64,000 bases of DNA, taken from the NCBI GenBank assembly GCA_009845855.1, contig VXYT01000034.1, forward strand, positions 64,820 through 128,819. The letters run 5' to 3'. A program made the position numbers and the translations under genes. Shown here piece after piece: positions 343 through 38,380 of the stretch. Each line of letters begins with the position of its first letter. Within the stretch, counting starts at the first letter, position 1. Source of the stretch: Candidatus Palauibacter ramosifaciens (GTDB taxonomy: Bacteria > Gemmatimonadota > Gemmatimonadetes > Palauibacterales > Palauibacteraceae). The notes beneath the pieces were generated by a model. It made no database searches. It had not been told where the DNA came from and worked only from the letters and a program-made list of their open reading frames with translations.

Positions 343-731
343 TGCGCGAAGGATGTAGTTCCGGATCAGAGGACGAAGTTGAAGGCAGTCAACCTAGCCA
401 CGATCCCTAGGCGGTGCGACCTGACTGGCCAGTTTCCGCGCACCCATCCCTTGCGATCCAACATGCACGCTGCACCGAACCTCGTTATCCGGCAGAGTCG
501 ACGGGCCGTCACCCTCCACCCGATCGCTACTACCCACCGCCGCTCTGGACCTACCACGTGGGGCGGTCGTCCCGAACGTTCCTCGCCACTACATCGCGCT
601 CATCGACGAGTCTCCCGGCGCCTACAACCACGGGGCTTCCTCGCAAAAGGTCCCGTCCGCCCTCGCCACGCCCCAATCTTGGCGCCCCGCCAGCAACAAA
701 TGCGGACGTCGTCACTCAATCAACGCCCCCC

Positions 732-1433
732 TTACTCCGGCTCTTCGGACGTGAACCGTGCGTCACCTAACCCGGAAGTGGGCATCATCAGCGCAATGTC
801 CTCTAAACTACCAACAGCAAAGTCGATTCGGTCAACGTCTCCACCTTCGCCATCGCACAACGCTAGACGGCACTCCCGCTCTAGCTCGAAGAACGGATCT
901 TTACGAAACGCCCGCTCCAACGCCGACATCGGATCCTGGAGATGAAGATTCATGGTCTGAGCCGACAAACTCTCGTCGCAATACTCTACGAAGCCCCACT
1001 TCCATGCCTTTACGCGTGACGGAATCGCCTCCTTGACTCGATCAGTAAACTCCGACAGATCATGAACAAGTACGGTGTGAGGTCCAAAACGTTGAAGTCT
1101 CGGCAATGACATGGCCATCTGTTCCCCCAATTGCTCCAGCGCAGATGGATCATTCAAATCCACGAAAAACTGAGTCATACAAAACACATATCTCACTTGT
1201 TCATATCCATCGTCGAACCTCAGCCGTTTCACACCGGGAAGTTCAATACCATTCACCCACACACTCGGTTCCAGCAAAATCACGCCACCTTCATCTGTAT
1301 CTCGTCGTTCACTGTCCTCTGTATCACGGTAAGAACTAAGTCGCCCCGCTGAAATCCGCCCTTCCGTCAGGAAGGCATCGGCGTGCTCCTTGTGATCAAA
1401 TACTTTTGCCAATAGTGTGGCTTGTTGACTCAA
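732..1433 (-). CDS. Hypothetical protein with a DUF2971-like C-terminal motif
   Basis: 233-aa low-GC ORF. N-terminal K.F...HA..F..G...LS.YR..E...R.D.DEG pattern and C-terminal FRKDPFFELERECRLAL (K...F..E.E.R). Confidence 0.6.
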   Translation of the reverse strand: MSQQATLLAKVFDHKEHADAFLTEGRISAGRLSSYRDTEDSERRDTDEGGVILLEPSVWVNGIELPGVKRLRFDDGYEQVRYVFCMTQFFVDLNDPSALEQLGEQMAMSLPRLQRFGPHTVLVHDLSEFTDRVKEAIPSRVKAWKWGFVEYCDESLSAQTMNLHLQDPMSALERAFRKDPFFELERECRLALCDGEGGDVDRIDFAVGSLEDIALMMPTSGLGDARFTSEEPE

Positions 1434-1464
1434 TGAACCATCCTCCTTGTTGCCACGCCTTTCT

Positions 1465-2517
1465 CTAAGCGTCTCGCACGGCGTCTACCGACTCCTGCTC
1501 GTCCCGCTTCTCCCTTAGTCTTCGCTGATCTTCCTCTTGCCATTCATACGGTGTCACTTTGAAGGTGAACGACACGTTACGAAACTTCTGCTTGAGAGGC
1601 ATCATGACGTTCCTGTGCCACTCCGCTCTACCCGCTTCTTCGCCCGGTCGAAAACCGTCAATGATGGCAAGCAATACGTACAACAGGTAAGATCGAGCTT
1701 TATCCGCAACAATTTTCATGTCTACTGGTGATCGAATCGGGATGATGGATTGACGACCATCTTGACCAACATGAAACGTCTTACGAAGACCGCTGCTTGC
1801 ATGGACCTCACCGGACCATTGACGATAGAGCAATTCAAAATCATCTAGCCGATCTAAATGCCGCGCAAGTTCCCATAAGTTCTTCGGACCGTTCCACAAT
1901 GAATGCCATCGCCAACGACGACCTGATGCCTGCGCTGCTTTGTGAACCTCTTGCAAATACGGCGCATCCCGAAGGGTCCGAAATCGCTGTAACTCTTCCT
2001 CAACTCGCGCCAGAAGTTCGTCATCGATTTCCCGCATAAGGTCATCGGACAGCTTTCCGGCTTGTATGGCCTTGTGCCGTTCCATTCGGTTGCGGACATT
2101 ATTGTACAACCATGCTAACGCTCGACGCTCGACATCCTCGTTGCAAATGTACTGGACAGCAAGCATCGCCTCGAACGAACCTCGCAACATCATCTTCGCG
2201 GGGTGGACACAAGAGTTGGACAACGCCACCTCAATCGCATCCGTAACTTCAATGATGTGGCGAAAGAGTACAACGGGCGCTACGAACGCCGCCTTATGCA
2301 TGGAAGCTGGACCGGTTTCTACGATACGAGCAAACGCCCATGTCGAGTAGTTGACGGCCTCGCGGAGCATAGGGCTGATGACCTCCATCAACCCGCTGGT
2401 GCTCTCTATTGCACGATCGCGATCCAGAACGGGTTTGAACGAATCGGTCAGCACAGGTTCGTCTCCTCCTATCCGAGGATACACAGTGCCAGCCACGGCC
2501 CAAGCCAAGGCGCGCAA
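1465..2517 (-). CDS. DUF5677-family (HEPN-like) protein
   Basis: 350-aa helical ORF with LRGSFEA, W....GPKNL.ELA and LYRQWSGEVH (Y...S..VH) motifs typical of DUF5677. Start uncertain. Confidence 0.65.
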   Translation of the reverse strand: MRALAWAVAGTVYPRIGGDEPVLTDSFKPVLDRDRAIESTSGLMEVISPMLREAVNYSTWAFARIVETGPASMHKAAFVAPVVLFRHIIEVTDAIEVALSNSCVHPAKMMLRGSFEAMLAVQYICNEDVERRALAWLYNNVRNRMERHKAIQAGKLSDDLMREIDDELLARVEEELQRFRTLRDAPYLQEVHKAAQASGRRWRWHSLWNGPKNLWELARHLDRLDDFELLYRQWSGEVHASSGLRKTFHVGQDGRQSIIPIRSPVDMKIVADKARSYLLYVLLAIIDGFRPGEEAGRAEWHRNVMMPLKQKFRNVSFTFKVTPYEWQEEDQRRLREKRDEQESVDAVRDA

Positions 2518-2640
2518 CGCGATCTTGTCACTTATCCACCGGAGGAAGCGCCACGCGGTGGCCCGTGGCGATGTCTTCGCCCACGCGACGGGCGCTTCCG
2601 AGGCGCTATGCGCGGCGACCCAGGGGGCGGTGACGCGGCT

Positions 2641-2961
2641 TTAGCCTCCGGCGAACAGGCGTTCGTCCGGCGATGCTACGATGATGGCCCCCCTGTCCGT
2701 GACTGACCCGCGAAGTAGCACGAGTCGGAGCCGCGAACCGTCCTCGAACTCGATGCAGTTGCAGAGGTGTTGGCTGTCCGGCCACTGGTCGCCCCGGCAC
2801 CGCGTCGTCGACGGGAATAGGTGGGGAGAATCGAACCCGGCGGAGTATCGACCGTCGAAGCCCACCCAGTCGAGCGCGTCGAAGATGTCCATCATCCGCG
2901 TCACCCCGACTTCTAGCCGAATCCGCCGCGCCACGTCGTGCGCGATCTTCGTCTTCGTCAT
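2641..2961 (-). CDS. Hypothetical protein (106 aa)
   Basis: ATG start, protein-like composition, co-directional with its neighbours; no family recognised. Confidence 0.5.
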   Translation of the reverse strand: MTKTKIAHDVARRIRLEVGVTRMMDIFDALDWVGFDGRYSAGFDSPHLFPSTTRCRGDQWPDSQHLCNCIEFEDGSRLRLVLLRGSVTDRGAIIVASPDERLFAGG

Positions 2962-3035
2962 GGTGCCCCAGACCGGCCCATTCTAGGGGGCTATCCCTAA
3001 GCTCAATAGCGAGGACACGGCGAACGCGGCAAGCT

Positions 3036-3491
3036 TCATTGCGCTGAGTCCACTTCATCGCACGGCCTGAATCCGAAGCCGACCGGCCCGTAGTCGATGC
3101 AAACCTCACAACACCCCGCGAGTGGCGCCGCCTGCCTCGGGGACGGAGGGGTGCCGGCGATGCGGCCTAGGAGGTCTGTTGCGGCAATCTCCCGCACCTG
3201 CCGGTCAAGCCGGACGAACATTGCCATCGCGGCGGCCTCGCGGCGGCGGTCGGCGGCGATGAGGGCGTTGACCTCTTCAAACATCCGCCGCGACTTGGCA
3301 GGGTCGAAGGTCCCAAGGGCCTGGCGGTACATCCCCCGCACTTCCTCGGGAGTGGGCATGACGCGCTTCAAGTCCCTCAGTGCAACGCGGACGCGGTGGA
3401 TCTGCTCTCTCGCGTCGCGGCGCACAGTGGCCGCCATCGCTATCGCGTCGGCCAAGGGGATCTGTTGACGGTGCCCCTCATTTTCTGCCAT
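3036..3491 (-). CDS. Hypothetical helical protein with a Cys-rich tail
   Basis: ATG at 3491 (MAENEGH) after a purine-rich stretch. Helical, coiled-coil-like body; ends CCEVC...C. Confidence 0.5.
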   Translation of the reverse strand: MAENEGHRQQIPLADAIAMAATVRRDAREQIHRVRVALRDLKRVMPTPEEVRGMYRQALGTFDPAKSRRMFEEVNALIAADRRREAAAMAMFVRLDRQVREIAATDLLGRIAGTPPSPRQAAPLAGCCEVCIDYGPVGFGFRPCDEVDSAQ

Positions 3492-3685
3492 GTGGTACCT
3501 ATCTTCCCGGTTGATGCACCCTTGCCGGTGCGTCCGAGGCCCTAACTTCAAGCGGTGGAGGATTCGGCCCCCGATTCGTCCGGGGGCCGTTCTCGGTGTG
3601 GAAAATACGGGGAAGCGAAAGCCGCCGAAAGCTCTCTAACGGGCGCGGGGAAGAGGCACTGCTGTACCGCGATGGTGGGGCCTTC

Positions 3686-3829
3686 CTTGCCGATCCGTTG
3701 TCGGTACATGAGGCGACGACGGATTAGCCCCGCGACCGCGCGGCGCATCTGGACGATGGTGTCCATCTGGCGGGTGTGTTGCTTCGCGGCGAACTCGTCG
3801 CCGTACCGCTGGAGGTGCTTCGCGCTCAG
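3686..3829 (-). pseudogene. IS1595-family (ISXO2-like) transposase C-terminal remnant
   Basis: Minus-strand frame reads LSAKHLQRYGDEFAAKQHTRQMDTIVQMRRAVAGLIRRRLMYRQRIGK, matching the IS1595 C-terminal S.KHL.RY..EF..R.N.R..DT..QM......G.RL.Y..LI pattern. An in-frame TGA lies two codons upstream of this segment, so the DDE core is gone. Confidence 0.75.
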
Positions 3830-3911
3830 CGTTCAACCGCACCAAGTCCGCCATGTAGGACATGCATGCGGAGTGGCCGAGAAGGTTCGACGATTCCCCG
3901 ACACGACGAAA

Positions 3912-4226
3912 TCAATCCGGATTGTTCTCTCTTCTCAGTTCACAGTATTCAATCGTTGCCAGTGTGATTTCTGGACAGATGCGTTGCCCTGCTATCCATC
4001 TGACGAGTCTCGAGCGGATGTCGGGATCCGTTTCAACGATACCCTTCAGCCGAAGACCTACGTGCCCCGTCATCCGGTATGGTCCACAAGCATCGCAATC
4101 CCACACGTGCTTGTCCTTGTTCTCGACACGGATCGGCGCCGGAACTGGAGCGTCGCAGATCTGACAGCAGAAGGATCTTCTGAGTGTCTTGGATAGGGCA
4201 TCAGGAAGCCCATGACGGTGGTTCAT
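3912..4226 (-). CDS. Small zinc-ribbon (CxxC...CxxC) hypothetical protein
   Basis: ATG at 4226 after GGGGAAGAGG; CQIC...WDCDACGPYRMT motif; 104 aa. Confidence 0.55.
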   Translation of the reverse strand: MNHRHGLPDALSKTLRRSFCCQICDAPVPAPIRVENKDKHVWDCDACGPYRMTGHVGLRLKGIVETDPDIRSRLVRWIAGQRICPEITLATIEYCELRRENNPD

Positions 4227-4297
4227 CCGTTCGTCCTCTTCCCCCGAGTTGCGCTTTCCTCCGCACCGTGCCGACACGCCCTAACGGCTGCGGATTC

Positions 4298-4729
4298 CTA
4301 ACAGCTGCTTGCCTCGACGATCTCGCCGATGACGTCCGTGGCGCTCGTCGACGAGTTAAGACACCACGTTCGCTGCGACGCTGCGTGTTTCGCCGTGATC
4401 CGGTAGCCGTCCTCATAAGCCGTCACCGTCAGCGCGACATTGCGGCTGGCTTGGAAGTCGACAGTTCCGTCACCGTCGAGATCCGTCGAGCCACCCGCCG
4501 CGATAGTGCTTGTCACGTAGGCTTGTGTGGCGAGGAAGTGTGCCTCTTCGACCCTCATCATGCTGTAAATGTCGCTTCGAGCTGTGGCATCGAACGTCTC
4601 TTGCTTCATTCTAGTGAACCGCGGGATTGCGATGGCCGCCAAGATGCCAACGATTACTACGATAATCAGGAGTTCGATGAGAGTGAAACCCGCTGCCGTC
4701 TTCAACGTCCCTTTTGATTCTCTCTTCAT
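4298..4729 (-). CDS. Type IV pilin / prepilin-type N-terminal cleavage-methylation protein
   Basis: Class III signal G|FTLIELLIIVVIVGILAAIAIPRF with Glu at +5; C-terminal Cys pair (WC...SSC). Confidence 0.92.
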   Translation of the reverse strand: MKRESKGTLKTAAGFTLIELLIIVVIVGILAAIAIPRFTRMKQETFDATARSDIYSMMRVEEAHFLATQAYVTSTIAAGGSTDLDGDGTVDFQASRNVALTVTAYEDGYRITAKHAASQRTWCLNSSTSATDVIGEIVEASSC

Positions 4730-4906
4730 TCTCGTCCCATCCTCTCGTCACACAGATTGTCGGCAACGCCCCGTCGCGCAGGACGAGGGGGCAGTCGCCT
4801 GGCGAGCACTGTGGAGTCTGCAATGGCCCCCGGACGATCAAGCTCTTCTTGAGTTCGGTATATCATCTGCCGATAACAAAGAACCGACGAGCCGGGACTG
4901 CCGCCG

Positions 4907-5527
4907 CTACCAATCCGGCGGTTCATCGAAGCCTGAGACCGCGCGGACTTGCCCATCCCTCAGGAAGACCGTAAGCGAATGGACGCGACCGGTGCCATCG
5001 TACAACGGCTGGCGGAGATCCCCGACTCCTGTTGGGGGCCTCGATGGTGGCAACCCCAGCGCCCGTAGCGCTTCCGGCACGGTGGCGAACCCGTTCGCAA
5101 TAGCGGCCGTCCATGAACGGACGACGGCGACGCCATCGACTGACTCAGGCCGTGCTCGCAAGCGCAGACTCCACCTCTTACCATCGAAACGGAGCCACCG
5201 GTCGGCTCCGACCGCGCGGTCCGCGATGGCCGGTCCGTACCTTGTGAAGGCCTCATCGATTGTGGCGCCAAGAAGATCACGAACGTCGGGAGCCAAGACG
5301 CCTTCGGCATCACTCTCATGCTGCGACATGCGAGGAAGTAAGGGGGCTGCGGGGCAGCACCGCAAGCCGCCTACCCTCCCCTCCAGATCCGTCGCGGGGT
5401 CGATCGTGTCGAGACCTTCAAGCCGGCCCGGGTCGGGGACGAGCAAGGTGCGCGTCACGAGACTCACGCCCACGAGCACGAGCGCGGCGCCCAGCGCCTT
5501 GCGTTCCGCGCGATTCAGATCCCACAC
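4907..5527 (-). pseudogene. Chimeric ORF: probable comEA 5' end fused at ~5378 to unrelated lower-GC coding sequence
   Basis: The first ~50 codons (MWDLNRAERKALGAALVLVGVSLVTRTLL...TDLEG) have a strong RBS, backbone codon usage and a membrane anchor of the ComEA type. No helix-hairpin-helix follows, and codon style changes after TDLEG. The comEA identity is inference. Confidence 0.4.
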
Positions 5528-10233: not shown

Positions 10234-11415
10234 ATGGACGGCGGCCTCTCCCGCGACGAACTCGTCCGCTACGGACGTCACGTCAGCATCCCCGAGGTGG
10301 GGGTGGAGGGCCAGCGGCGCCTGCTGGCTTCGAGCGTGCTCATCGTGGGCGCGGGGGGTCTCGGCTCTCCCGCCGCGCTCTACCTCGCCGCGGCGGGCGT
10401 GGGACGGATCGGCCTCGTGGACCACGACCGCGTGGAACTCTCGAACCTGCAGCGCCAGGTGCTCTACGACACGGACGCGGTCGGGACGCCGAAGCTCGCC
10501 TCGGCCCGCGCGCGGCTCGCGGGGCTGAACCCGGACGTCGCCGTCGAGACGTTCGACGCGCGCCTGGATTCGGGGAACGCGTTCGAGATCCTCGAGGGAT
10601 GGGATTTCGTCATCGACGGGAGCGACAACTTCCCGACCCGGTATCTCGTGAACGACGCCTGCGTGATGCTCGGGACGCCCCTCGCGTATGGGGCCATCCT
10701 CCGCTTCGAGGGTCAGGCCTCGGTGTTCGCCGCGCACGATGGCCCCTGCTATCGCTGCCTGTTCCGGGACCCGCCGCCGCCGGATCTGGTGCCGAATTGC
10801 GCGGAGGCCGGGGTGCTCGGCGTCCTTCCCGGCATCGTGGGATCGATCCAGGCGAACGAAGCGATCAAGTGGCTGGCGGGGATCGGCGACACGCTCGCCG
10901 GACGCCTGCTCCTCATCGACGCGCTGCGCATGGAGTTCCGCTCGCTGGACATCGCCCGCGACCCCGAGTGCGTGGTGTGCGGCTCCGAGCCGACGGTGAC
11001 GGAACTCATCGACTACGAGCGCTTCTGCGGCGGGACGGCGGATGGCGCGTCCGCGGGCGACGGTAGCGCGGAAACGGAGGGCGCGATGGACGACTTCGAC
11101 ATCGACGTGCACGAGCTGAAGCGCCGGATCGACGCCGGCGAGCGCTTCCAGCTCGTTGACGTACGCGAAGACTACGAGTGGGCGATCTGCAACCTCGAGG
11201 ACGCGGGAGCGCGGCTGGTGCCGCTCGCCACGCTCCCGGAGGCCGTGGAGAGCCTGGACGCGTCGGAACCGCTCATCATCCACTGTCGTTCCGGCCCCCG
11301 CGGCGACCGCGCCGTCGAGTACCTGCGCACGGTCGGCTTCGACAACGCCGTGAACCTCGCGGGGGGGATCCTCGCGTGGGCCGAGGAGATCGATCCCGCG
11401 ATGCCCCAGTACTGA
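10234..11415 (+). CDS. moeB: MoeB/ThiF E1-like adenylyltransferase fused to a rhodanese domain (MoeZ type)
   Basis: GAGGLG, SNLQRQ, DGSDNFPTRY, CYRC...C..AGVLG, C..C, and C-terminal rhodanese HCRSG. Confidence 0.93.
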   Translation: MDGGLSRDELVRYGRHVSIPEVGVEGQRRLLASSVLIVGAGGLGSPAALYLAAAGVGRIGLVDHDRVELSNLQRQVLYDTDAVGTPKLASARARLAGLNPDVAVETFDARLDSGNAFEILEGWDFVIDGSDNFPTRYLVNDACVMLGTPLAYGAILRFEGQASVFAAHDGPCYRCLFRDPPPPDLVPNCAEAGVLGVLPGIVGSIQANEAIKWLAGIGDTLAGRLLLIDALRMEFRSLDIARDPECVVCGSEPTVTELIDYERFCGGTADGASAGDGSAETEGAMDDFDIDVHELKRRIDAGERFQLVDVREDYEWAICNLEDAGARLVPLATLPEAVESLDASEPLIIHCRSGPRGDRAVEYLRTVGFDNAVNLAGGILAWAEEIDPAMPQY

Positions 11416-25254: not shown

Positions 25255-25596
25255 ATGGCCTCACGCTGGGTCGGTCTCGCGCTGGGACTCTGGTTCCTGG
25301 GCGCTCCGTTCATCTGGGGATACCCGTTCGGTTTCTTGTGGTGGCACAGCGTGGTGCTCGGCGGTTCCATCCTCGTCGTCACCATCACCTTCAACCTCGG
25401 CATCAACCGGATCAGCGGCTGGGGCCTCATCGCCCTCGGCGCCTACAGCATGCTGTCGCCCTTCATCCACGGGTATCTCGCCAACGCACAGGCCCTGTTC
25501 AACGACCTCATCTTCGGCGTCATCACCGTGGGCACCGGCACCGCGATGGGCGGGGCGGGAATCGAACACTCCGACGAGGCGCCCAGCGCCGCCTGA
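25255..25596 (+). CDS. SPW-repeat small membrane protein
   Basis: ATG after GAGAGG; four TM segments with W...APF and SPF motifs. Confidence 0.8.
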   Translation: MASRWVGLALGLWFLGAPFIWGYPFGFLWWHSVVLGGSILVVTITFNLGINRISGWGLIALGAYSMLSPFIHGYLANAQALFNDLIFGVITVGTGTAMGGAGIEHSDEAPSAA

Positions 25597-25597
25597 C
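25564..25597 (+). repeat. 34-bp imperfect direct repeat, copy 1 (3' end of the SPW gene)
   Basis: GAACACTCCGACGAGGCGCCCAGCGCCGCCTGAC; 30/34 identical to 26829-26862, first 19 bp identical. Confidence 0.9.
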
Positions 25598-25603
25598 CCC
25601 GAG

Positions 25604-25617
25604 GACGTTCCCGCGGG
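25604..25617. repeat. GACGTTCCCGCGGG motif downstream of a beta-propeller gene
   Basis: Identical to the 14-mer at 27607-27620. Confidence 0.75.
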
Positions 25618-25631
25618 CACTTCACCTCCGC

Positions 25632-26834
25632 CTAGCAGCCCGCGGACCCGGTCCATTCCTCCACCACGAAGCCTTCGATGGTGTGGATTCCCAGTTCGTT
25701 GAGCCGCACACCCCAGATCGTGTCCCGCAGGACTTCGCTTGGGGTGAACAGGCGCGGTAGGAGAACGTCGGAGGGTGGAGGGATCTCCACGGCGTCGTCG
25801 ACCCTCCGGAGCGTCCATACTCTCCAGCGGCTGTGCTCCCGCCGATCCGCTTCGAGCAGTATGGACTCCGGATCCAACCGTGCCCACACGCGGCCATCCG
25901 ACATGAACTGAAGGTCATGCACGGCTGGATGCCGCTCCGGTACGGGCAGGAGGTTTCTGAGATCGAACTCCTCCTGACGTGCCTCCGGGAAGAACCTCGA
26001 GAAGAACGCATCCACCTCCTGCTCCGTGATTCTCGGCCCACGCAGGGAGTCCCGGATCGCACCGACCACGTCGCCGACTCCGTCGAGCAGGACGATCTCT
26101 AGCCGCCTTCCTCCGACCGACACCGCCGCCAGCCCTCCGCAGGCCGCACTCACATCCGCGTGTGGAGGCGCATCGAACGGTCGGATGAACGCGGACACGC
26201 TCATCGACCTTCCATCGCCCGACCACACTCCAACGGGACCCCACGGCGGCACGTGGCGGACGGTGTCGATCGCATCGGAGTCGAAGTGCTCGAGTTCGAT
26301 GGCGGTCGGCGGTTCAGCATCCTCTGCCGGTGGGTTCATCGCACCCAGGGCGACTCCGGAGATCACGAGCCGCCGATGGCCCAGGTCAAACACGTCGCGC
26401 GCCATCCTGCCGGGCCGCTGCTCCACCGCGATGGTCTCCCCTACTTCGGCGTCCGGTCGAAACCGCGTCAGGCGTCGCGCGATCCGATCCCACACCGTCG
26501 CGCCGCCCGTGATGTTCGGGGACAGACTCAGCGGCAGCCGAAACTCCCCGGGGCCATCGCCCTCCCGTCCAACCGCGTACACGCTGTCGGGTGTGCGAAT
26601 CACGATACGTAAGTTGCCCGCGTCGAGAATCCAGAGATCATCGCCGACACGACTCACATGTTCCGGCCGGAACAACGGCCCCGCGGTTTCGGCCTCCGTC
26701 AATTGCCGCACACGAGTCGCAGTCACGACCGGAAGCGTTCTCGCCGTCCCGACGGCCTCGGCGCCGCCGTCACAGCCCGCGACCCCGAACGTGACCGTGC
26801 AGACGAGCCCAATAGGTCCACTCTTCGTGAACAC
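25632..26834 (-). CDS. 6-bladed beta-propeller lipoprotein (NHL-like), intact
   Basis: Lipobox VAGC; ILDAGN, VGREGDGPGEFR, VWD...RRLTRF, DGRVW, IWGVRLNELG..IE pattern. Confidence 0.85.
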   Translation of the reverse strand: MFTKSGPIGLVCTVTFGVAGCDGGAEAVGTARTLPVVTATRVRQLTEAETAGPLFRPEHVSRVGDDLWILDAGNLRIVIRTPDSVYAVGREGDGPGEFRLPLSLSPNITGGATVWDRIARRLTRFRPDAEVGETIAVEQRPGRMARDVFDLGHRRLVISGVALGAMNPPAEDAEPPTAIELEHFDSDAIDTVRHVPPWGPVGVWSGDGRSMSVSAFIRPFDAPPHADVSAACGGLAAVSVGGRRLEIVLLDGVGDVVGAIRDSLRGPRITEQEVDAFFSRFFPEARQEEFDLRNLLPVPERHPAVHDLQFMSDGRVWARLDPESILLEADRREHSRWRVWTLRRVDDAVEIPPPSDVLLPRLFTPSEVLRDTIWGVRLNELGIHTIEGFVVEEWTGSAGC

Positions 26835-26862
26835 TCCGACGAGGCGCTCGGCGCCACCCGAC
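26829..26862 (+). repeat. 34-bp imperfect direct repeat, copy 2 (covers the GTG start of the 25632-26834 gene)
   Basis: GAACACTCCGACGAGGCGCTCGGCGCCACCCGAC, 1265 bp from copy 1. Confidence 0.9.
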
Positions 26863-26869
26863 TGGGCGG

Positions 26870-27184
26870 TCAGTTGTCGCAGCGGCGTAGATCGCGACCG
26901 GAGCGGTCTTCTTGCTCGAGGACGAGGAGGACGCGGGCCTGTCGCGTCTCCGAGACGACGACCCTCGGCGTCGGCGACCCGAAGCCGCCGCAGTCGGCCC
27001 GCACCTGGTACGCGCCGGGCGGCAGGTCCTCCATCGCGAAGCGGCCGGCAGCATCGGTCACGACTCGGACGTCGGTGCCGACCAGGATGACGGGCACGGC
27101 CGGGAACCCCCGCCCCGTGTTTCCGTTCACGACCCGCCCGGCGACCGATCCCGGCATCGTGACGGGGACGACCAGACGCGCCAC
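26870..27184 (-). pseudogene. Carboxypeptidase-regulatory-like (prealbumin-like) domain gene, probably 5'-truncated
   Basis: GSVAGRVVNGNTG....V.V.LVGT....VTDAAGRF....LPPGAYQVRA...GF; ends RRCDN; no signal peptide. Confidence 0.65.
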
Positions 27185-27204
27185 CTCACCGGGTTCGGCA
27201 CGGA

Positions 27205-27588
27205 GAGTATGCGATCGTCGGAGACCGCCATCGCCAACGGAGACTCAGCCTCGCCCGGCCCCTCTCCGTGAGGCACGAATGCGGCTTCCAGCGAACCGGA
27301 TGTCGTGAAGACGCGCACGTACGGCGGTGCCTGGTCGAGCACGACGACGAAACGTCCATCCGGGGTGAGATGGGCGTCACGGATTCGGGTGAAACCTTCC
27401 CCCTCCGAGGCGGGGTTTATCGCCGCGCCGATACGAACAGCCGAGTCGAGCAGGCGCGCCATGGACACGGAGACATCGACTGCATCCCGGTCGGCCGCGA
27501 GCTCAGACCCGTCGGGCGCGCGGTCGCCGCCACACGCCAGAAGGCCAACAAGCGCGGCGATCCTGCAGCGTACGTACGCATCGCCCAA
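27205..27588 (-). pseudogene. N-terminal fragment of a beta-propeller lipoprotein
   Basis: TTG start at 27588 after GGAGAG; lipobox LLAC; VLDQAPPYVRVF and GEGPGEAESP motifs. Homology stops after SDDRIL, where the sequence switches to the carboxypeptidase-like gene. The 27205 end is approximate. Confidence 0.7.
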
Positions 27589-27608
27589 TCGCTGCTCTCC
27601 TTGCCAGA

Positions 27609-27624
27609 CGTTCCCGCGGGAACG
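27609..27624. repeat. Perfect 16-bp palindrome CGTTCCCGCGGGAACG between propeller genes
   Basis: Read directly; self-complementary. Confidence 0.9.
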
Positions 27625-27661
27625 CGTGCTACTCCGGCTCGAGGCCCAGTGCGACCTGATC

Positions 27662-28850
27662 CTATCGGATGATTCGGAGACGCACGACGTACTGGAGGTC
27701 AAGCGCATCCCGTGAGACGCCGATGACCGTCTCTTCCCCGAACACCGGCGGGGGTTTCGTGTCGAGGAGAACCGGAGAGGCGATCTTGCCGATGTAGACC
27801 CCGTACTCGTCAAAGACGTCCCATTCCCGCACGGCTCCCGTTTCCGTAGCGACCCAGATCCACCCATTCGCACCGGAGTGAATGGAGCGGAGCGAGAGCT
27901 TGTGGTCCGGCAGTCTGTCCGGCGGCACGCCGGTCGCGGCGGCGATCTGTTGCCGATCATGACCAACAAGCGGGGCCGGGGGGCGACGCAACCGTATGGT
28001 CTTTGTGGTGTCACCCCGATACGTGACTCTGTGCAAGTCGAAGACCGCCTGGTTCGCCAACCAAACGTCCCCATCGGCAGCCACGTCGAGCGTAACGGCT
28101 GGCGAATGGGGGACGGGGGATATCTCCGTAAGGTTACCGGCAGTGCGCGAATACGTCTCGACCCGCCGGTCGAGGTGTGGGATCCGGAACGTATCGGCAG
28201 CGGCGAGTGCCTCGCCGCTGCCGTGTCGGACCAGGAATGTCGAGGGCGAGGTCGGCAGCGTCCCGTCCGGCACCCTGAACGGCACGGCCCAGCGATGCAC
28301 GCGCCCGCCGTTGTCGACCCAGAGCGGCCACGGGAACCGCGCGCTCGTGGCGGGTCCCAGAGAGAGCGATGCCCGAACCGCACCGGTCGAGTCGAACAGC
28401 GTCAACCGGTGCGCGAGGGCATCCATGGCCCTAGAGGGAGTGCCGCGACCGCGCGATGCCAGCCAGCATGGCGAACTCCCCGGGCCCGCTCCCGTCCCGA
28501 CCGAGGGTCTGCAGACATGCACCGCTGGGCGAAAAGATGCGAATAGTGTTCGCACCCAGATCGGCCACATAGATCCGTCCCGGACCGTCAACAAAAAGGG
28601 AGACTACACTGGCGAAGGCGTCGCAGTCGCCCTCCACCGATCCGATGCGCAACTCCTCGACCAGCGTCGGGGCGCGGGCTGCGCGCGACGAAGGCGAGTC
28701 GGGACTGGAGATGACGACCCGTCCGCCGCGGAGCGTGTCCACCCACACGCCGTCCGCACGGGCCGACGCCTCCTCGCAACCCGAGACGGAGACGGCCCCA
28801 CAGATCACACCGACCCAACAGCGGAGTGTCAGTTGTCGCAGCGGCGCACC
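27662..28850 (-). pseudogene. 6-bladed beta-propeller lipoprotein broken by a 1-nt frameshift
   Basis: The N-half (VSGC lipobox, EELRIG, IYVAD, GRDGSGPGEF) ends at TAG 28433-28431; the C-half is in ORF 27662-28594. Deleting base 28432 restores ...L-W-A-M-D-A-L-A-H-R-L-T-L-F-D. Start uncertain. Confidence 0.8.
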
Positions 28851-28881
28851 TCGCGGCCGGATCGATCTTCGGGCTCCAGGA
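28828..28881 (-). repeat. Second copy of the 3' end of the carboxypeptidase-like gene
   Basis: 45/54 identical to 26869-26922, including an exact GTCAGTTGTCGCAGCGGCG. Encodes VLEPEDRSGREVRRCDN* versus VLEQEDRSGRDLRRCDN*. Confidence 0.85.
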
Positions 28882-28961
28882 CCCGGCTCCTGCCCCCCCA
28901 CCGCCGCCGGCGGCCCGCCAGTCCCAGGGAACGGAAGCCGCGCGCCGACAGCCGCGCGCGT

Positions 28962-29987
28962 CTACCTCGCACAGGGAGAGCCGCCCGCTGGACGCAGCGG
29001 CCGCAAGGCGATCATGAACGCTTCGGGTTCGATTACGCGGGTGCGGCGACCGTTGATTTGGCGGACGCTGACACCGCGTTCGTACACGATGGCGCTATCA
29101 CCGTGCACACCCATGATGGATCGGTGACGCTCACGGCTTTCGTCCACCAGGAGCGAGTAGCAACCCGTGGCCGGATCGATGATGGCGGCGGCGAACTCGA
29201 GGCGCATGTGGTTGACGAACGTAAGCACCAAGTGGCCCTGGCCGTCGTGTGAAAGGCTCCTGTAGGAACTCGTGTAGCGCCCGCCATCGGGTCTGGACGC
29301 CCGCCACTCCGTCACGGCCTCGGCGACCTCCGGGGGGACGGGCACGGTGATCGACTCACCCGCGGTCGAATGACCGACGATGGTCCCTTCCGCGATGAAG
29401 TACGCCATGTCGTCGAAGCAGACCCCGTCGGCGGCGAGTAAAGATCTTGAGCGGCCGGCGTCCTGCAGGGGACGCTGACCAGCGCCGAGGCGCGCTCCAC
29501 CGGGCCCCCGAAGCGCCCCGTGCAGGAGCGGAACGACCGGGTCGTCACCCATGGCGCATACGTATTTTGCGAAATTCAAGCCCGGATTCCAGGTCCAGGC
29601 CGAATCGGCGGCCACGGTCCAATAATTGACGCGCAAACCATCGGACACGAGCAGGCCACCATTGGCCGCCGCCACATCCTGGACCATGTTGCGCACCTCG
29701 CCCGGGCCGTCGCCGCGTCCCCTGCCGTACGTGCCGACGACGGTTCCGTCCGCGATCGAGAACGCGACCACGAGCCCAGGCTCACCGACCTCGGCGACGT
29801 AGATCCGCCTTCGTTCATGATCCACCTCGAACACATGCGTCAGAAAGGCGCGCGTCCAGTCGTTCACCACCTCCCGTCCCGCCTGGTGGTCCACTGACAA
29901 CCGCTGCTGCCCCGCCAGGGGTAGCGAGGAAAGGCATAACCAGAGGGCGACGAGGAGTCGAAGGGCTCTCCCCTTGTCGGTGCCCAT
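28962..29987 (-). CDS. Secreted 6-bladed beta-propeller-like protein, intact
   Basis: Signal peptide ending LAG-Q; IYVAE, YGRGRGDGPGEVR motifs; starts 4 nt after the upstream gene's stop. Confidence 0.8.
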   Translation of the reverse strand: MGTDKGRALRLLVALWLCLSSLPLAGQQRLSVDHQAGREVVNDWTRAFLTHVFEVDHERRRIYVAEVGEPGLVVAFSIADGTVVGTYGRGRGDGPGEVRNMVQDVAAANGGLLVSDGLRVNYWTVAADSAWTWNPGLNFAKYVCAMGDDPVVPLLHGALRGPGGARLGAGQRPLQDAGRSRSLLAADGVCFDDMAYFIAEGTIVGHSTAGESITVPVPPEVAEAVTEWRASRPDGGRYTSSYRSLSHDGQGHLVLTFVNHMRLEFAAAIIDPATGCYSLLVDESRERHRSIMGVHGDSAIVYERGVSVRQINGRRTRVIEPEAFMIALRPLRPAGGSPCAR

Positions 29988-29991
29988 CGAT

Positions 29992-30510
29992 CTAGTAGAC
30001 GAAGGAATGGGAATCGCCTGCTGCTACTCCGTTTTGCCCGCACCCGGAGTAGTCGCAAAGAACCGTTACACTGCCCAGTGGACCAACATCGTACCATTGT
30101 TCCGTCAGGCGACAGGCTTCTATAGCCGAGGGGGCTCCGGCGTTCGCCGCGCCATTCGGATCCGGGATGCGTGACTGAGCCGGCGCCGCCGGCTCGGCCA
30201 GGAGCGTGGTGCAGAGGAGCACCTCCTCTGTCGTAAGCAGCGAAGGCGCCGAGGGGTGGCCAGATTTGACGGTTCGGGACGGCGCGTTCTCGATGAACCC
30301 GGACATCGACGCTCCCTGGATTTCTCCGACCGGGGCCTGACCGGCTACCGCATCGGGGAGTACCGTAAGCACTACTCCGAGCGACAGCACCAACACGCTA
30401 CGCCAGCTCGATCCTGCGTGGGCGGCCCTATGCGGCACAAGCGAAGCTACGAGCGCTGCGACCAGAGCGCACGGAACAGGCCTGTAGCGTCGTGTTCTTA
30501 CGTTCGACAT
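29992..30510 (-). CDS. Secreted Cys-containing precursor-like protein (172 aa)
   Basis: ATG at 30510 after GGGAGG. Two hydrophobic segments (ending AAHA and AVAG), a low-complexity Pro/Ala/Ser spacer, and a C-terminal ~40 aa with C-x18-C-x4-C. Confidence 0.6.
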   Translation of the reverse strand: MSNVRTRRYRPVPCALVAALVASLVPHRAAHAGSSWRSVLVLSLGVVLTVLPDAVAGQAPVGEIQGASMSGFIENAPSRTVKSGHPSAPSLLTTEEVLLCTTLLAEPAAPAQSRIPDPNGAANAGAPSAIEACRLTEQWYDVGPLGSVTVLCDYSGCGQNGVAAGDSHSFVY

Positions 30511-30575
30511 CTCTGCCTCCCGGACCCAGAGGGACGCTCGCCCCGGAACTCGTTCCCGAGGCTCGTACATGGACG

Positions 30576-31457
30576 CTACGGGGCAGCAACCGGCGTCGGG
30601 TAGATGCAATATCGGTGAATCTTTGACGAAATCGGTGTAGTGCTGGCCGCATGTGGTTTCAGGCGTTCCGTGAACCGAAGTCCGCTACCGGTCTTGGGGT
30701 CGCCGGGCCGCGTCGGCCGCAAGTACTGCTCCACGAGCGCTTTCAGCAGGCGGTCAGGAGGGACCTTCTCCAGTTGCACCAGCGTGCACCCGCGCCAGCG
30801 TTTCGACTTGCGCTGAAGCGTCTCGCGGGCGAAGCCGAGGTGCATGCTGACGCTGTTCCAGTTCAGGCCCGAGGAACGAAGTTGCCTGGCTCTCAGGATC
30901 ACCAGGGCCGCCAAGAATCGGCTCAGGGTCGTCCTCCGATCGTGCCATGTACTGAACGCCTTCGAGAGTGTGATCGGCGAGTAGCGAACGGCGGCGGCCA
31001 ACTCGTTCACGCTACGCACGGGCCGGTCGGTGGCGGCGCGGAGGCTGTACGGCAGCGCGGTTCGAAGGGCGGGGGGCAGCGTCGCTTCCCCGGCTTGCTC
31101 GGCCAGGCGCAGCAGCGGGACCGACCCGCGGGCCGCTTCGATCTCGAGCGGGAGTTCGGTCTGCAGGTCCGCGAACCAGGCGACGGCGGACGCTTTGACG
31201 TCGCTCAGCCGGCGAACGGCTTCGGGCTCGCGATCCGTGACGAGGATGAGGGGAATCCACAGCCTCTTCCGTTCGATGTCCCCCAGGAGTTCGATCGTCT
31301 CCGCCGGGATGGGATGGCGGCAACCGAGAATCAGACACTCCACCGGGTCATCGCCATTCACAAACTGAGCGGCATTCGTCACGATCCGCGCGGCGCTGCC
31401 GGCCGCTCGCGCGATCAGTGCCGCGTCGTTCTTCGAGCCCGCCAGAACGTTGATCAT
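30576..31457 (-). CDS. Transcriptional regulator: degenerate receiver-like N-domain plus AraC-type HTH
   Basis: ATG at 31457 after GGAGGAGG; WIPLILVT receiver strand; SVNELAAAVRYSPITLSKAF and WNSVSMHLGF..RETL helix-turn-helix pair. Confidence 0.75.
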   Translation of the reverse strand: MINVLAGSKNDAALIARAAGSAARIVTNAAQFVNGDDPVECLILGCRHPIPAETIELLGDIERKRLWIPLILVTDREPEAVRRLSDVKASAVAWFADLQTELPLEIEAARGSVPLLRLAEQAGEATLPPALRTALPYSLRAATDRPVRSVNELAAAVRYSPITLSKAFSTWHDRRTTLSRFLAALVILRARQLRSSGLNWNSVSMHLGFARETLQRKSKRWRGCTLVQLEKVPPDRLLKALVEQYLRPTRPGDPKTGSGLRFTERLKPHAASTTPISSKIHRYCIYPTPVAAP

Positions 31458-37179: not shown

Positions 37180-37620
37180 CTAGACGCGTCGAGCGAGAGC
37201 GCGGAACTCGGGGAGGGTGAGGAGGAAGATTCCGAGGGTGATGACGGCGCTCCCCACGCACCAGCGGCAGATGGCGTGGATGACCCAGAGTTCGAGGGCC
37301 GTCAGGTAGATGGTGAAGGCGAGTCCCCCCAGGGCGAGCACCGCCAGCACACGCGGGATCCAGCGGGCGGCGCCGATGCCGGCCCGGGTCCCCAGCATCG
37401 AGACGCCGAACACGGCCACGTACCAGCCCACACCCCAGCCGGCCACGGGGAACCCGAGGAAGCGGGCCCAGCGCGACCCCTGTACGAGATCGCAGCCGCC
37501 GCCCGCGCCGCATACGAGTTCGCCGTAGTAGCCGAGCGCGTAAAGGAAGAGGTAGGTGGAGAGGAAGGCGCCGGCCAGCGCCAGGAGCGCGATCCCCCGG
37601 CGCCGGTTCAGTTCGCTCAT
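37180..37620 (-). CDS. Vitamin K epoxide reductase (VKOR) family protein
   Basis: C....GC..V..S.W..FLG.PVA and C.WC (ICRWC). Confidence 0.92.
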   Translation of the reverse strand: MSELNRRRGIALLALAGAFLSTYLFLYALGYYGELVCGAGGGCDLVQGSRWARFLGFPVAGWGVGWYVAVFGVSMLGTRAGIGAARWIPRVLAVLALGGLAFTIYLTALELWVIHAICRWCVGSAVITLGIFLLTLPEFRALARRV

Positions 37621-37624
37621 GGCT

Positions 37625-38380
37625 TTACGGCGTTCCCCCGGAAGAAGCGTCGGCGGACGACAACTCCTCCAACCGGGTCTGGATCATCCCCTCCAGGAAC
37701 GTATACGGGTCCGCGCCCTGCCAGTTCACGCGCTGGCCGTCCACAAAGATCGTGGGGGTGGAGTTCACGCCGCGCGACTCGGCGACCCTCTGGGACTTGG
37801 CAACGTCGTCCAGATAGCGGCGCTCGCGCATGCACTCGTTGAAGGCGTCGGAATCGACGCCCGCGTCCCGGGCGATTTCGGCGATCGCACCGGCGGGATC
37901 CTGTTCCAGGTACCAGCGCGTCTGGCGAGCGAGCAGGAGGTCGTGCACGGGCCAGTACAGGCCCTGTTCGTTCGCGCAGCGCTCCGCCAGCGCCGCGGCG
38001 ACCGAGTTGGGGAAGGTGCCGAGAATGATGGTGTACGAAACCCAGCGCACCGGGCCGTTCGCCGGCTCGACGTAGTTCTGCCGGATGAGTTTCCCGTGGA
38101 AGCCCGAGAACTGCGCGCAGGCGGGACAAGAGGGGTCGTAGAACTCCTCGATCGTGACCGGAGCCGATTCCGCGAGTTCGTAACCGACCGCGGGGTCCGC
38201 TTCCGCCGCGGCAAGCGCTTCGGCCAACTCGGCGGGGGTCGGCGGCGGACCCGATCCGCTCTGTCCGCCCCCCACGAAAAGCCAGTACCCGCCAGCGGCC
38301 ACGATGACGACCACGGCGATCGGGAACCACCGGTTCTTGCGCGCGGGAGCGCTCGTCTGCTGTGCCATCTTCCTTGCCAT
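37625..38380 (-). CDS. DsbA-family thioredoxin-fold oxidoreductase
   Basis: N-terminal TM anchor, EFYDPSCPACAQF (CPAC), GVNSTPT cis-Pro loop; adjacent to VKOR. Confidence 0.88.
   Translation of the reverse strand: MARKMAQQTSAPARKNRWFPIAVVVIVAAGGYWLFVGGGQSGSGPPPTPAELAEALAAAEADPAVGYELAESAPVTIEEFYDPSCPACAQFSGFHGKLIRQNYVEPANGPVRWVSYTIILGTFPNSVAAALAERCANEQGLYWPVHDLLLARQTRWYLEQDPAGAIAEIARDAGVDSDAFNECMRERRYLDDVAKSQRVAESRGVNSTPTIFVDGQRVNWQGADPYTFLEGMIQTRLEELSSADASSGGTP

Follow-up and report, generated by a model that had tools for sequence, protein, structure and literature searches.

Gene Content of a Strain-Variable Island

The region described here occupies positions 25598–31457 of the window, that is, of the whole 64,000-nucleotide (nt) stretch analyzed in the marine bacterium Candidatus Palauibacter ramosifaciens (Gemmatimonadota; GenBank assembly GCA_009845855.1, contig VXYT01000034.1, forward-strand positions 64,820 to 128,819). 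In the order of transcription, its minus strand carries an AraC-like regulator gene, a 172-amino-acid (aa) open reading frame (ORF) for an exported cysteine-containing protein, and the genes or gene remnants of four exported propeller-like proteins, P1 to P4, the last two being separated by a CarboxypepD_reg sequence (Table 1). These are the seven elements listed in an earlier note made from the sequence alone, referred to below as the original prediction, and all of them are present on the minus strand where that note had placed them. The gene map was fixed by third-position G+C content (GC3) and by gene calls on five public assemblies with an identical locus; because the window has about 69% G+C, most of the ORFs listed for it are spurious. 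Related loci are denoted by L numbers, and individual proteins by four-digit P numbers.

We describe this region with high confidence, taking the description as a whole, as a strain-variable island of a Palauibacter-like chromosome, bounded by the AraC-like regulator gene, which adjoins apgM, and by the SPW/copA genes. The island is made of two-gene cassettes, in which the gene for an exported "head" protein is followed by that for an exported NHL-like six-bladed propeller, usually a lipoprotein, and its regulator-proximal cassette is replaced by unrelated small Cys-rich genes in sister genomes. The two genes of a cassette are separated by a few to approximately 35 nt. Heads are of two kinds, small disulfide-rich proteins and CarboxypepD_reg proteins of about 470 aa, and P2 and P4 are assigned to the second cassette type. 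The regulator, the 172-aa ORF, P1, and P4 are intact; the other three of the seven coding elements of the window are pseudogenes. The island has a G+C content of about 0.667 versus about 0.705 in the flanks, in agreement with the lower GC noted originally, and its GC3 values are 0.71–0.82 versus 0.88–0.95.

A Recurrent Pair of Small Protein and Propeller

The P1 gene starts 4 nt past the stop codon of the 172-aa ORF, which belongs to the family called here type B. A B gene immediately precedes a P1-type propeller gene in the window and in L009, L011, L106, and L013–L015, both genes having the same orientation and being 4 nt to about 100 nt apart; in L011 and L013–L015 the upstream gene is of the B type or of its distant form B'. 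The pair is found in at least four unrelated genomic contexts. For instance, in L011 it stands beside genes for a TonB-type outer membrane protein and a 5'-nucleotidase, and in L106 the pair (P0023 followed by P0007) is located between the acyl-CoA dehydrogenase and ThiC genes. A different, 85-aa 8-Cys gene precedes the propeller gene in L018, and a homolog of this gene is convergent in L012. Propellers with no small gene beside them are found in L016, L017, L019, and L020, as well as in L110, L112–L114, and L116; a small gene lacking an intact propeller was seen just once, and this gene, P0025 of L108, is itself degenerate.

The B and P1 families are similarly tiny (21 and 18 clusters, respectively, among 5.8e9 proteins) and share contigs. 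The pairwise identities of the two partners co-vary (r = 0.91; seven loci, 21 comparisons), the two families diverging jointly and the small protein being the faster of the two. Both have Sec or lipoprotein signals and both are under purifying selection, the ratio of nonsynonymous to synonymous substitution rates (dN/dS) being 0.30–0.60 for the family of the 172-aa ORF (0.41–0.60 for the ORF itself) and 0.20–0.28 for P1. The former values show that the 172-aa ORF does code for a protein and is moderately constrained, and the homologs that the original prediction had called for do exist. The proposal that one peptide is served by a library of binders did not survive, as each small protein has its own adjacent propeller.

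The window copy of the B gene is a chimera. Residues 1–32 correspond to an A-type signal peptide (84% identity to P0004), joined in frame at residue ~3 of the B-type gene, whose own signal peptide (..AVAG|QAP) forms residues 33–57; the product thus has two tandem signal peptides. They are followed by a region of about 70 aa matching a predicted-disordered part of P0003 and by a C-terminal Cys-rich β module. About 26 aa holding three cysteines, which P0002 and P0003 keep, are missing. In both respects the small ORF of the window is a derived copy.

A word-indexed search of the 5.8e9 proteins found three relatives of the 172-aa ORF. An exhaustive HMMER search of 1.84e9 representatives gave seven matches at E <= 0.001, including two long repetitive proteins that match over short stretches only. 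The figure of 21 clusters comes from a profile search and includes the B' form, which is of about 180 aa. The B and B' proteins have a common C-terminal module, C-x2-[YW]-[IV] ... [IV]-[ET]-[AM]-C-x-L-[TS] ... C-x-Y-x-x-C, and in the family alignments the conserved cysteines of the mature proteins are odd in number, five in B' and seven in B, so that one cysteine must remain outside any intramolecular disulfide. In the AlphaFold2 (AF2) model of P0003, the C-terminal ~50 aa form three long β strands with a predicted local distance difference test score (pLDDT) of 75–83; the remainder is below 50, and the overall pLDDT is 51.8. The preceding ~100 residues are predicted to be disordered but contain a conserved linear motif, SG.[IV]E.A..RTVK..H..AP.LL.TEE. 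A Foldseek search with this model, which is poor outside the C-terminal module, returned nothing below E = 2. The small proteins had no match in Pfam, NCBIfam, or PDB sequence searches; for the window ORF no Pfam family was seen at E <= 0.1.

P1 is a non-lipoprotein with a type-I signal peptide and four conserved cysteines; P2, P3, and P4 have lipoboxes. Six four-stranded blades can be counted in the AF2 model of P1, built from a family alignment of 19 sequences (pLDDT 77.7, predicted template modeling score 0.78). The Foldseek matches of this model are generic propellers, the best of which are the NHL domains of Brat and TRIM71 (target-normalized TM-score up to 0.63, for Brat); WDR5, the virginiamycin B lyase (Vgb), and BamB are also among them. 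The P1 family profile matches the TRIM3 NHL domain at E = 0.035. The ten P1 loci found in species-representative genomes are all from Longimicrobiales or Palauibacter. In P4 the only detectable NHL-like stretch is a match to the TRIM71 NHL domain at E = 4.9e-5; this protein is 92% identical to its counterpart in L021 and 86% (tblastn) to 89% (alignment for dN/dS) to that in L022, with dN/dS of 0.19–0.20. Neither P1 nor P4 has a Pfam match above threshold, including NHL (PF01436) and DUF5128 (PF17170); the N-terminal part of P2 reaches 23.6 bits with DUF5128 (cut-off 22.9).

The G.GPGE motif, which the original prediction had reported as common to otherwise highly divergent propellers, is indeed present in all four propeller genes, one copy in each, with one other occurrence in any frame of the window. 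Apart from the first one or two blades, the island propellers are nearly unalignable with each other (BLASTP E mostly above 1e-3). By these alignments they are old divergent lineages, not recent tandem copies, and the refuting case of uniformly conserved housekeeping propellers does not hold.

The Regulator and the Replacement of the Adjacent Cassette

The regulator gene is the conserved left anchor of the island. Its orthologs, 83–88% identical, are found next to apgM in L009, L010, L021, L102, and L103; in L111 a regulator gene also adjoins apgM. The dN/dS values are 0.26–0.45. In L104 the gene is truncated and fused to a propeller fragment. The original prediction had described the protein as "receiver-like/AraC". 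The C-terminal region matches HTH_18 weakly (E = 8.7e-6; 26.4 bits, under the Pfam cut-off of 33.6) and HTH_AraC at 20.6 bits (cut-off 26.6). No receiver domain was detected: the N-terminal ~120 aa, which display an alternating β/α pattern, have no Pfam match at E <= 10, including Response_reg, and no PDB match. A remote homolog in L105 matches Response_reg at E = 0.086. The C-terminal tail is variable, the ORF of the window extending ~37 codons (30576–30686) past the stop of the L009 and L010 orthologs, and the L021 and L103 orthologs having other short tails.

Five unrelated types of small gene, all encoding a signal peptide and multiple cysteines, follow orthologous regulators (Table 1). 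The nucleotide homology (blastn) to the window ends at position 30532 in L103, 30502 in L021, and 30496 in L102, that is, at the start codon 30510 of the 172-aa ORF; in L010 it ends at 30414, past the shared first signal peptide. The sequence upstream of this breakpoint zone is common to other Palauibacter genomes, and the content downstream of it differs. The predicted recurrence of a regulator, a small secreted Cys protein, and propellers with variable content is thus observed in L009, L010, L021, and L111. The "dedicated" regulator proposed originally is not obligatory, since the B and P1 pair occurs without it in L011, L106, and L013–L015. In the A-type module a third conserved gene, encoding a multi-pass membrane protein of ~220–265 aa, directly follows the propeller gene; its product has no Pfam match.

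Pseudogenes and the CarboxypepD_reg Genes

In P2, a single A inserted at 28432 (CTCT-A-GGGCC) introduces a TAG codon. The site is intact in L022, with an uninterrupted frame of 413 codons, and in L009. A sequencing error was rejected as the cause, as the extra base is not in a homopolymer and the lesion is identical in all five independent assemblies carrying the locus.

The P3 fragment and the CarboxypepD_reg ORF had been recorded as separate elements. Both are present, but they are stumps left on either side of one deletion, of 1,959 bp by comparison with L021 (Candidatus Palauibacter rhopaloidicola, whose flanks have 89–95% nucleotide identity to the window), with the junction at 27205–27208. 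Lost with it were the remainder of P3 and all but the last third of a 469-aa protein, and the two stumps are out of frame: the P3 fragment is ~128 aa of true P3 continued by an out-of-frame read into CarboxypepD_reg DNA. L021 keeps both an intact P3 of ~400 aa and the intact 469-aa ortholog (L021 6556–7965), in which a signal peptide, a CarboxypepD_reg domain, a plug-like middle part, and another CarboxypepD_reg domain follow each other. The stump in the window retains only the last domain (PF13620, 53 bits versus a cut-off of 32.3, E = 4.6e-14), without a start or signal peptide.

A further remnant of such a gene, 55 nt at 28828–28882 upstream of P2, is 84% identical to 26869–26923, and L009 has at this site a full, frameshifted CarboxypepD_reg gene. 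In addition, the start of the L009 long-read contig carries regulator-like sequence, and at 4467–5408 apgM without its 5' part is fused to the start of a CarboxypepD_reg gene. The entire island may have been rearranged or duplicated here; the alternative is an assembly artifact.

P4 is flanked by a 34-nt direct repeat (25564–25597 and 26829–26862, 88% identical). One copy overlaps the P4 start codon, and the convergent SPW gene has the other as its 3' end. This SPW end recurs in L104 as a 64-nt copy (10670–10733) located just past a CarboxypepD_reg stop codon. These repeats suggest that cassettes may be gained or lost by recombination at this sequence.

Genomic Neighborhood

The SPW gene is the right boundary of the island in L021 and L104 as well. 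Beyond it lies a copA/CsoR pair, and on the other side of the island are apgM, ccm genes, a sigma factor gene, and a DsbA-VKOR pair. The latter, a DsbA-like thioredoxin gene and a VKOR gene at window ~37180–38380, about 7 kb from the island, constitutes a disulfide-forming system that is probably housekeeping, yet relevant to Cys-rich exported proteins. A second low-GC block (0.50–0.63) at window ~700–4800 contains on the minus strand four unannotated genes, for products of 233, 350, 171, and 121 aa, and one that is type-IV-pilin-like (4298–4729); it has no RNA genes. No Rfam family or tRNA gene was found within the window, promoter and terminator scans performed no better than on shuffled sequence, and eight island proteins had no PADLOC match at E <= 0.01. 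Viral contigs and plasmids yielded no relatives of P1, so that a phage or plasmid origin is not supported.

Table 1. Coordinates of the island features in the window and of the corresponding genes in related loci
Feature	Position or locus	Strand	Basis or context
AraC-like regulator, 293 aa from MINVLAG	30576–31457	minus	weak HTH_18
Homology breakpoint zone	30496–30532	minus	blastn end points around start codon 30510
172-aa exported Cys-containing ORF, B-type	29992–30510	minus	tandem signal peptides, family searches
P1 propeller, intact, 341 aa	28962–29987	minus	AF2 model, 18-cluster family
55-nt CarboxypepD_reg 3'-end remnant and junction to next propeller	28828–28882	minus	direct repeat D1
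P2 propeller lipoprotein pseudogene, two frames, lipobox VSGC	27662–28901	minus	alignment with L022, L009
P3 N-terminal fragment, lipoprotein	27127–27588	minus	TTG start, lipobox LLAC
CarboxypepD_reg stump, 104 aa	26870–27184	minus	PF13620 profile
P4 lipoprotein, intact, 400 aa, presumed propeller	25632–26834	minus	lipobox VAGC, GDGPGEF motif
SPW-repeat membrane protein gene, convergent, right boundary	25255–25596	plus	PF03779, E = 7.5e-12
Regulator-proximal gene, type B	window, L009		after regulator
Regulator-proximal gene, type A, 102 aa	L010, L111		then own 379-aa propeller lipoprotein and multi-pass membrane protein
Regulator-proximal gene, 82-aa 4-Cys type	L021		then three propellers, intact CarboxypepD_reg gene, P4
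Regulator-proximal gene, ~95-aa 10-Cys type	L102		contig ends before any propeller could show
Regulator-proximal gene, further Cys-rich ORF	L103		contig ends before any propeller could show
A-type module membrane protein	L010 2359–2964; L111 5036–5734; L114 5048–5740; L115 5118–5777; L110 5088–5885		

Similar Arrangements outside Palauibacter

When 95 loci were scanned heuristically, 30 small ORFs encoding a signal peptide and four or more cysteines came up, and 11 of these are located directly upstream of a propeller gene. The clearest independent instance of small Cys peptides associated with propellers is L085 (6998–14274), from a metagenome-assembled genome (MAG) of Gemmatimonadales, which encodes a CxxC lipoprotein, two tandem secreted peptides of ~65 aa with four cysteines and a common motif C...C...CPCW, and at least five propeller lipoproteins, two of which pass the DUF5128 threshold. 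A divergent gene for an extracytoplasmic function (ECF) sigma factor stands beside this array.

The more distant relatives of the propellers have other neighbors, which makes the association with small genes specific to a subfamily. Among 67 heterogeneous upstream neighbors of these relatives, five are AcrB-type resistance-nodulation-division (RND) pumps and seven are other propellers; no general rule that a propeller is preceded by a toxin-like gene emerged. In L027, L043, L091, and L096, which belong to other phyla and orders, distant propeller genes directly follow AcrB-type RND pump genes, with a 4-nt overlap in three of the four cases.

Comparison with Known Systems

In Bacteroidales, genes for NVEALA small proteins (PF14055) are found upstream of DUF5128/TolB-like six-bladed propeller lipoproteins. 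The analogy with these loci, drawn in the original prediction, extends to the gene architecture: here, too, in a member of the FCB (Fibrobacteres-Chlorobi-Bacteroidetes) group, the genes of one or more six-bladed propeller lipoproteins come after those of small exported proteins, and some propellers of the island and of L085 reach the DUF5128 score. It does not extend to the proteins themselves. No Pfam family, NVEALA included, was matched at E <= 1 by seven small proteins of six types, which are larger (~60–140 aa mature), Cys-rich, and of several unrelated kinds, and P1 and P4 are under the DUF5128 threshold. No paper with "NVEALA" or "DUF5128" was found in the literature searched, and the description of the Palauibacterales mentions neither propellers nor bacteriocins.

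The adjacent exported pair, the replacement between strains at a fixed locus, the orphans, and the decaying copies resemble periplasmic effector-immunity pairs such as Tse1/Tsi1 and polymorphic toxin loci. Tsi1 itself is a partial β-propeller (PMC3391265). Unlike these systems, the island has no recognizable toxin domain and no type VI, type V, or type I secretion module nearby; its immunity candidate is a full propeller of 340–400 aa, and there is no conserved N-terminal trafficking domain with variable toxin tips as in polymorphic toxins.

Two other comparisons concern periplasmic propellers with a small or disordered partner. In quinohemoprotein amine dehydrogenase, the gene for the small cross-linked γ subunit adjoins that for the propeller β subunit, and methylamine dehydrogenase is composed of light and heavy chains. 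The island likewise has a gene for a small periplasmic protein, rich in cysteine and aromatic residues and with an odd conserved Cys count, next to a propeller gene. However, the propellers have six blades rather than seven, the small proteins are not mutually homologous, genes for radical S-adenosylmethionine (SAM) enzymes, peptidases, exporters, or MauG were not seen in the neighborhood, and there is no sequence match to the solved structures. The six-bladed TolB propeller binds the disordered translocation domains of colicins, or Pal. The similarity to TolB lies in the six-bladed periplasmic propeller and in a partner whose N-terminal ~100 aa are predicted to be disordered and carry a conserved linear motif; unlike TolB, P1 lacks the TolB N-terminal domain and the PD40 repeats, and its partner is encoded by the adjacent gene of the same genome.

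Functional Interpretation

We think it likely that the small protein and the propeller are a cognate binding pair, which would meet in the periplasm or at the cell surface. The most economical reading of this pair, which we put forward tentatively, is that the small protein would be an exported effector, bacteriocin- or toxin-like, and that the propeller would neutralize or escort it in the producer, acting as a cognate binder or immunity protein. Propellers without a head would then be retained as "orphan" protections, and the regulator would drive the promoter-proximal cassette from the conserved upstream region. The argument for an effector and its binder is that both partners are exported, tightly coupled, and co-inherited, that the small partner is swapped wholesale at one expression site, that propellers often persist alone, that pseudogenes are frequent, and that the base composition is atypical. 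Adjacent gene pairs that are polymorphic between strains and have orphan partners, a trait of polymorphic toxin and effector-immunity systems, are found here. The toxin/immunity and sensing roles of the original prediction remain hypothetical.

Several observations weigh against an effector with its immunity protein. No toxin domain, fold, or motif was found in any small protein by Pfam, NCBIfam, PDB sequence, or Foldseek searches, and among the genes within ~10 kb no outer-membrane export route and no delivery or secretion system was seen. β-Propellers were reported not to be found among immunity proteins in a survey of polymorphic toxins (PMC3482391), and proteins of 340–400 aa are large for this role. 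Gene-wide diversifying selection is not apparent from the dN/dS values. A conserved CarboxypepD_reg protein, which does not look like a toxin, heads half of the cassettes, and the window's own small ORF, a derived copy, may be non-functional.

The partners could also be joined by maturation: the propeller might, as an enzyme or chaperone, fold, modify, or carry the small Cys-rich protein, or the two might be subunits of a stable periplasmic protein, like the small Cys/Trp-rich and propeller subunits of the quinohemoprotein or methylamine dehydrogenases. NHL/SGL-type propellers do include enzymes, and the weak enzyme-like matches (SGL, 4.9e-5; Vgb lyase in Foldseek) are compatible with such a role, as are the tight gene coupling and joint divergence, the invariant C-x-Y-x-x-C motif, the odd count of conserved cysteines in B' (five) and B (seven), which leaves one for a cross-link or a cofactor, and the CxxC lipoprotein encoded just upstream of the L085 peptides. 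Nevertheless, we regard this explanation as unlikely. The slot is filled by small proteins without kinship to each other, a pattern easier to reconcile with binding as the common theme than with a single chemistry; many propellers have no partner gene; radical SAM, MauG-like heme protein, peptidase, and exporter genes were not seen within ~10 kb; and no PDB sequence match to dehydrogenase subunits was obtained at E <= 10. Still less probable, in our opinion, is the capture of envelope ligands, in which the propellers would bind a nutrient or a metal-loaded carrier and pass it to CarboxypepD_reg/TonB-type outer membrane proteins, with the small proteins as secreted scavengers. BtuG with BtuB and SusD with SusC are precedents for such a transfer. 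Most propellers are lipoproteins, heads with CarboxypepD_reg and plug-like parts occur in L021, L009, and L104, the L011 pair is located beside a 1,064-aa CarboxypepD_reg and OMP_b-brl_4 protein, and the island adjoins copA and a gene for a CsoR-type repressor. But the CarboxypepD_reg proteins of the island have no barrel, neither a TonB box nor ExbBD is found nearby, pseudogenes are frequent, and wholesale exchange of a small protein for unrelated sequences between close strains is unusual for nutrient uptake. Metal homeostasis, suggested by the nearby copA, was rejected as the principal explanation, since the B and P1 pair occurs far from copA elsewhere.

Finally, in Gemmatimonadota associated with sponges and sediments, the propellers might be an independent expansion of NHL-type "eukaryote-like" repeats that interact with hosts or surfaces, the small ORFs being incidental and the block largely decaying. 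That three of the seven coding elements are pseudogenes and that the neighbors of distant relatives are varied (RND pumps in five and other propellers in seven of the 67 cases) would agree with this, and several related MAGs have sponge-derived isolate names (RHO1, RHO3, SB0661), the order Palauibacterales being abundant in sponges (PMC10469786). It is nonetheless improbable given the pairing of B and P1 in several unrelated contexts with correlated divergence (r = 0.91), the position of 11 of the 30 small Cys ORFs directly upstream of a propeller, and the purifying selection on both partners.

The proposed exported effector/binder cassettes are built from unannotated families, with no Pfam, NCBIfam, PADLOC, PDB, or searched-literature match for the small proteins. 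In the broadest form of the effector/binder proposal, which we consider less likely than not, diverse small disulfide-rich exported proteins would each be recognized by a dedicated six-bladed propeller and swapped at a fixed, regulator-controlled site by recombination at the start codon. They would represent an undescribed class of Sec-dependent cassettes in Gemmatimonadota, perhaps in the wider FCB group, with propellers as specificity or immunity proteins. For the Gemmatimonadota, an abundant phylum with few cultured members, and for the ways in which they compete or interact with hosts, the seven natural and presumably cognate pairs defined here offer a concrete handle for binding, toxicity-and-rescue, and structural work. 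If it is true that the propellers are immunity or specificity proteins, they would add a fold class that was reported to be absent from immunity proteins. The cassettes may also explain the unexplained loci of Bacteroidales in which a small protein is encoded together with six-bladed propellers.

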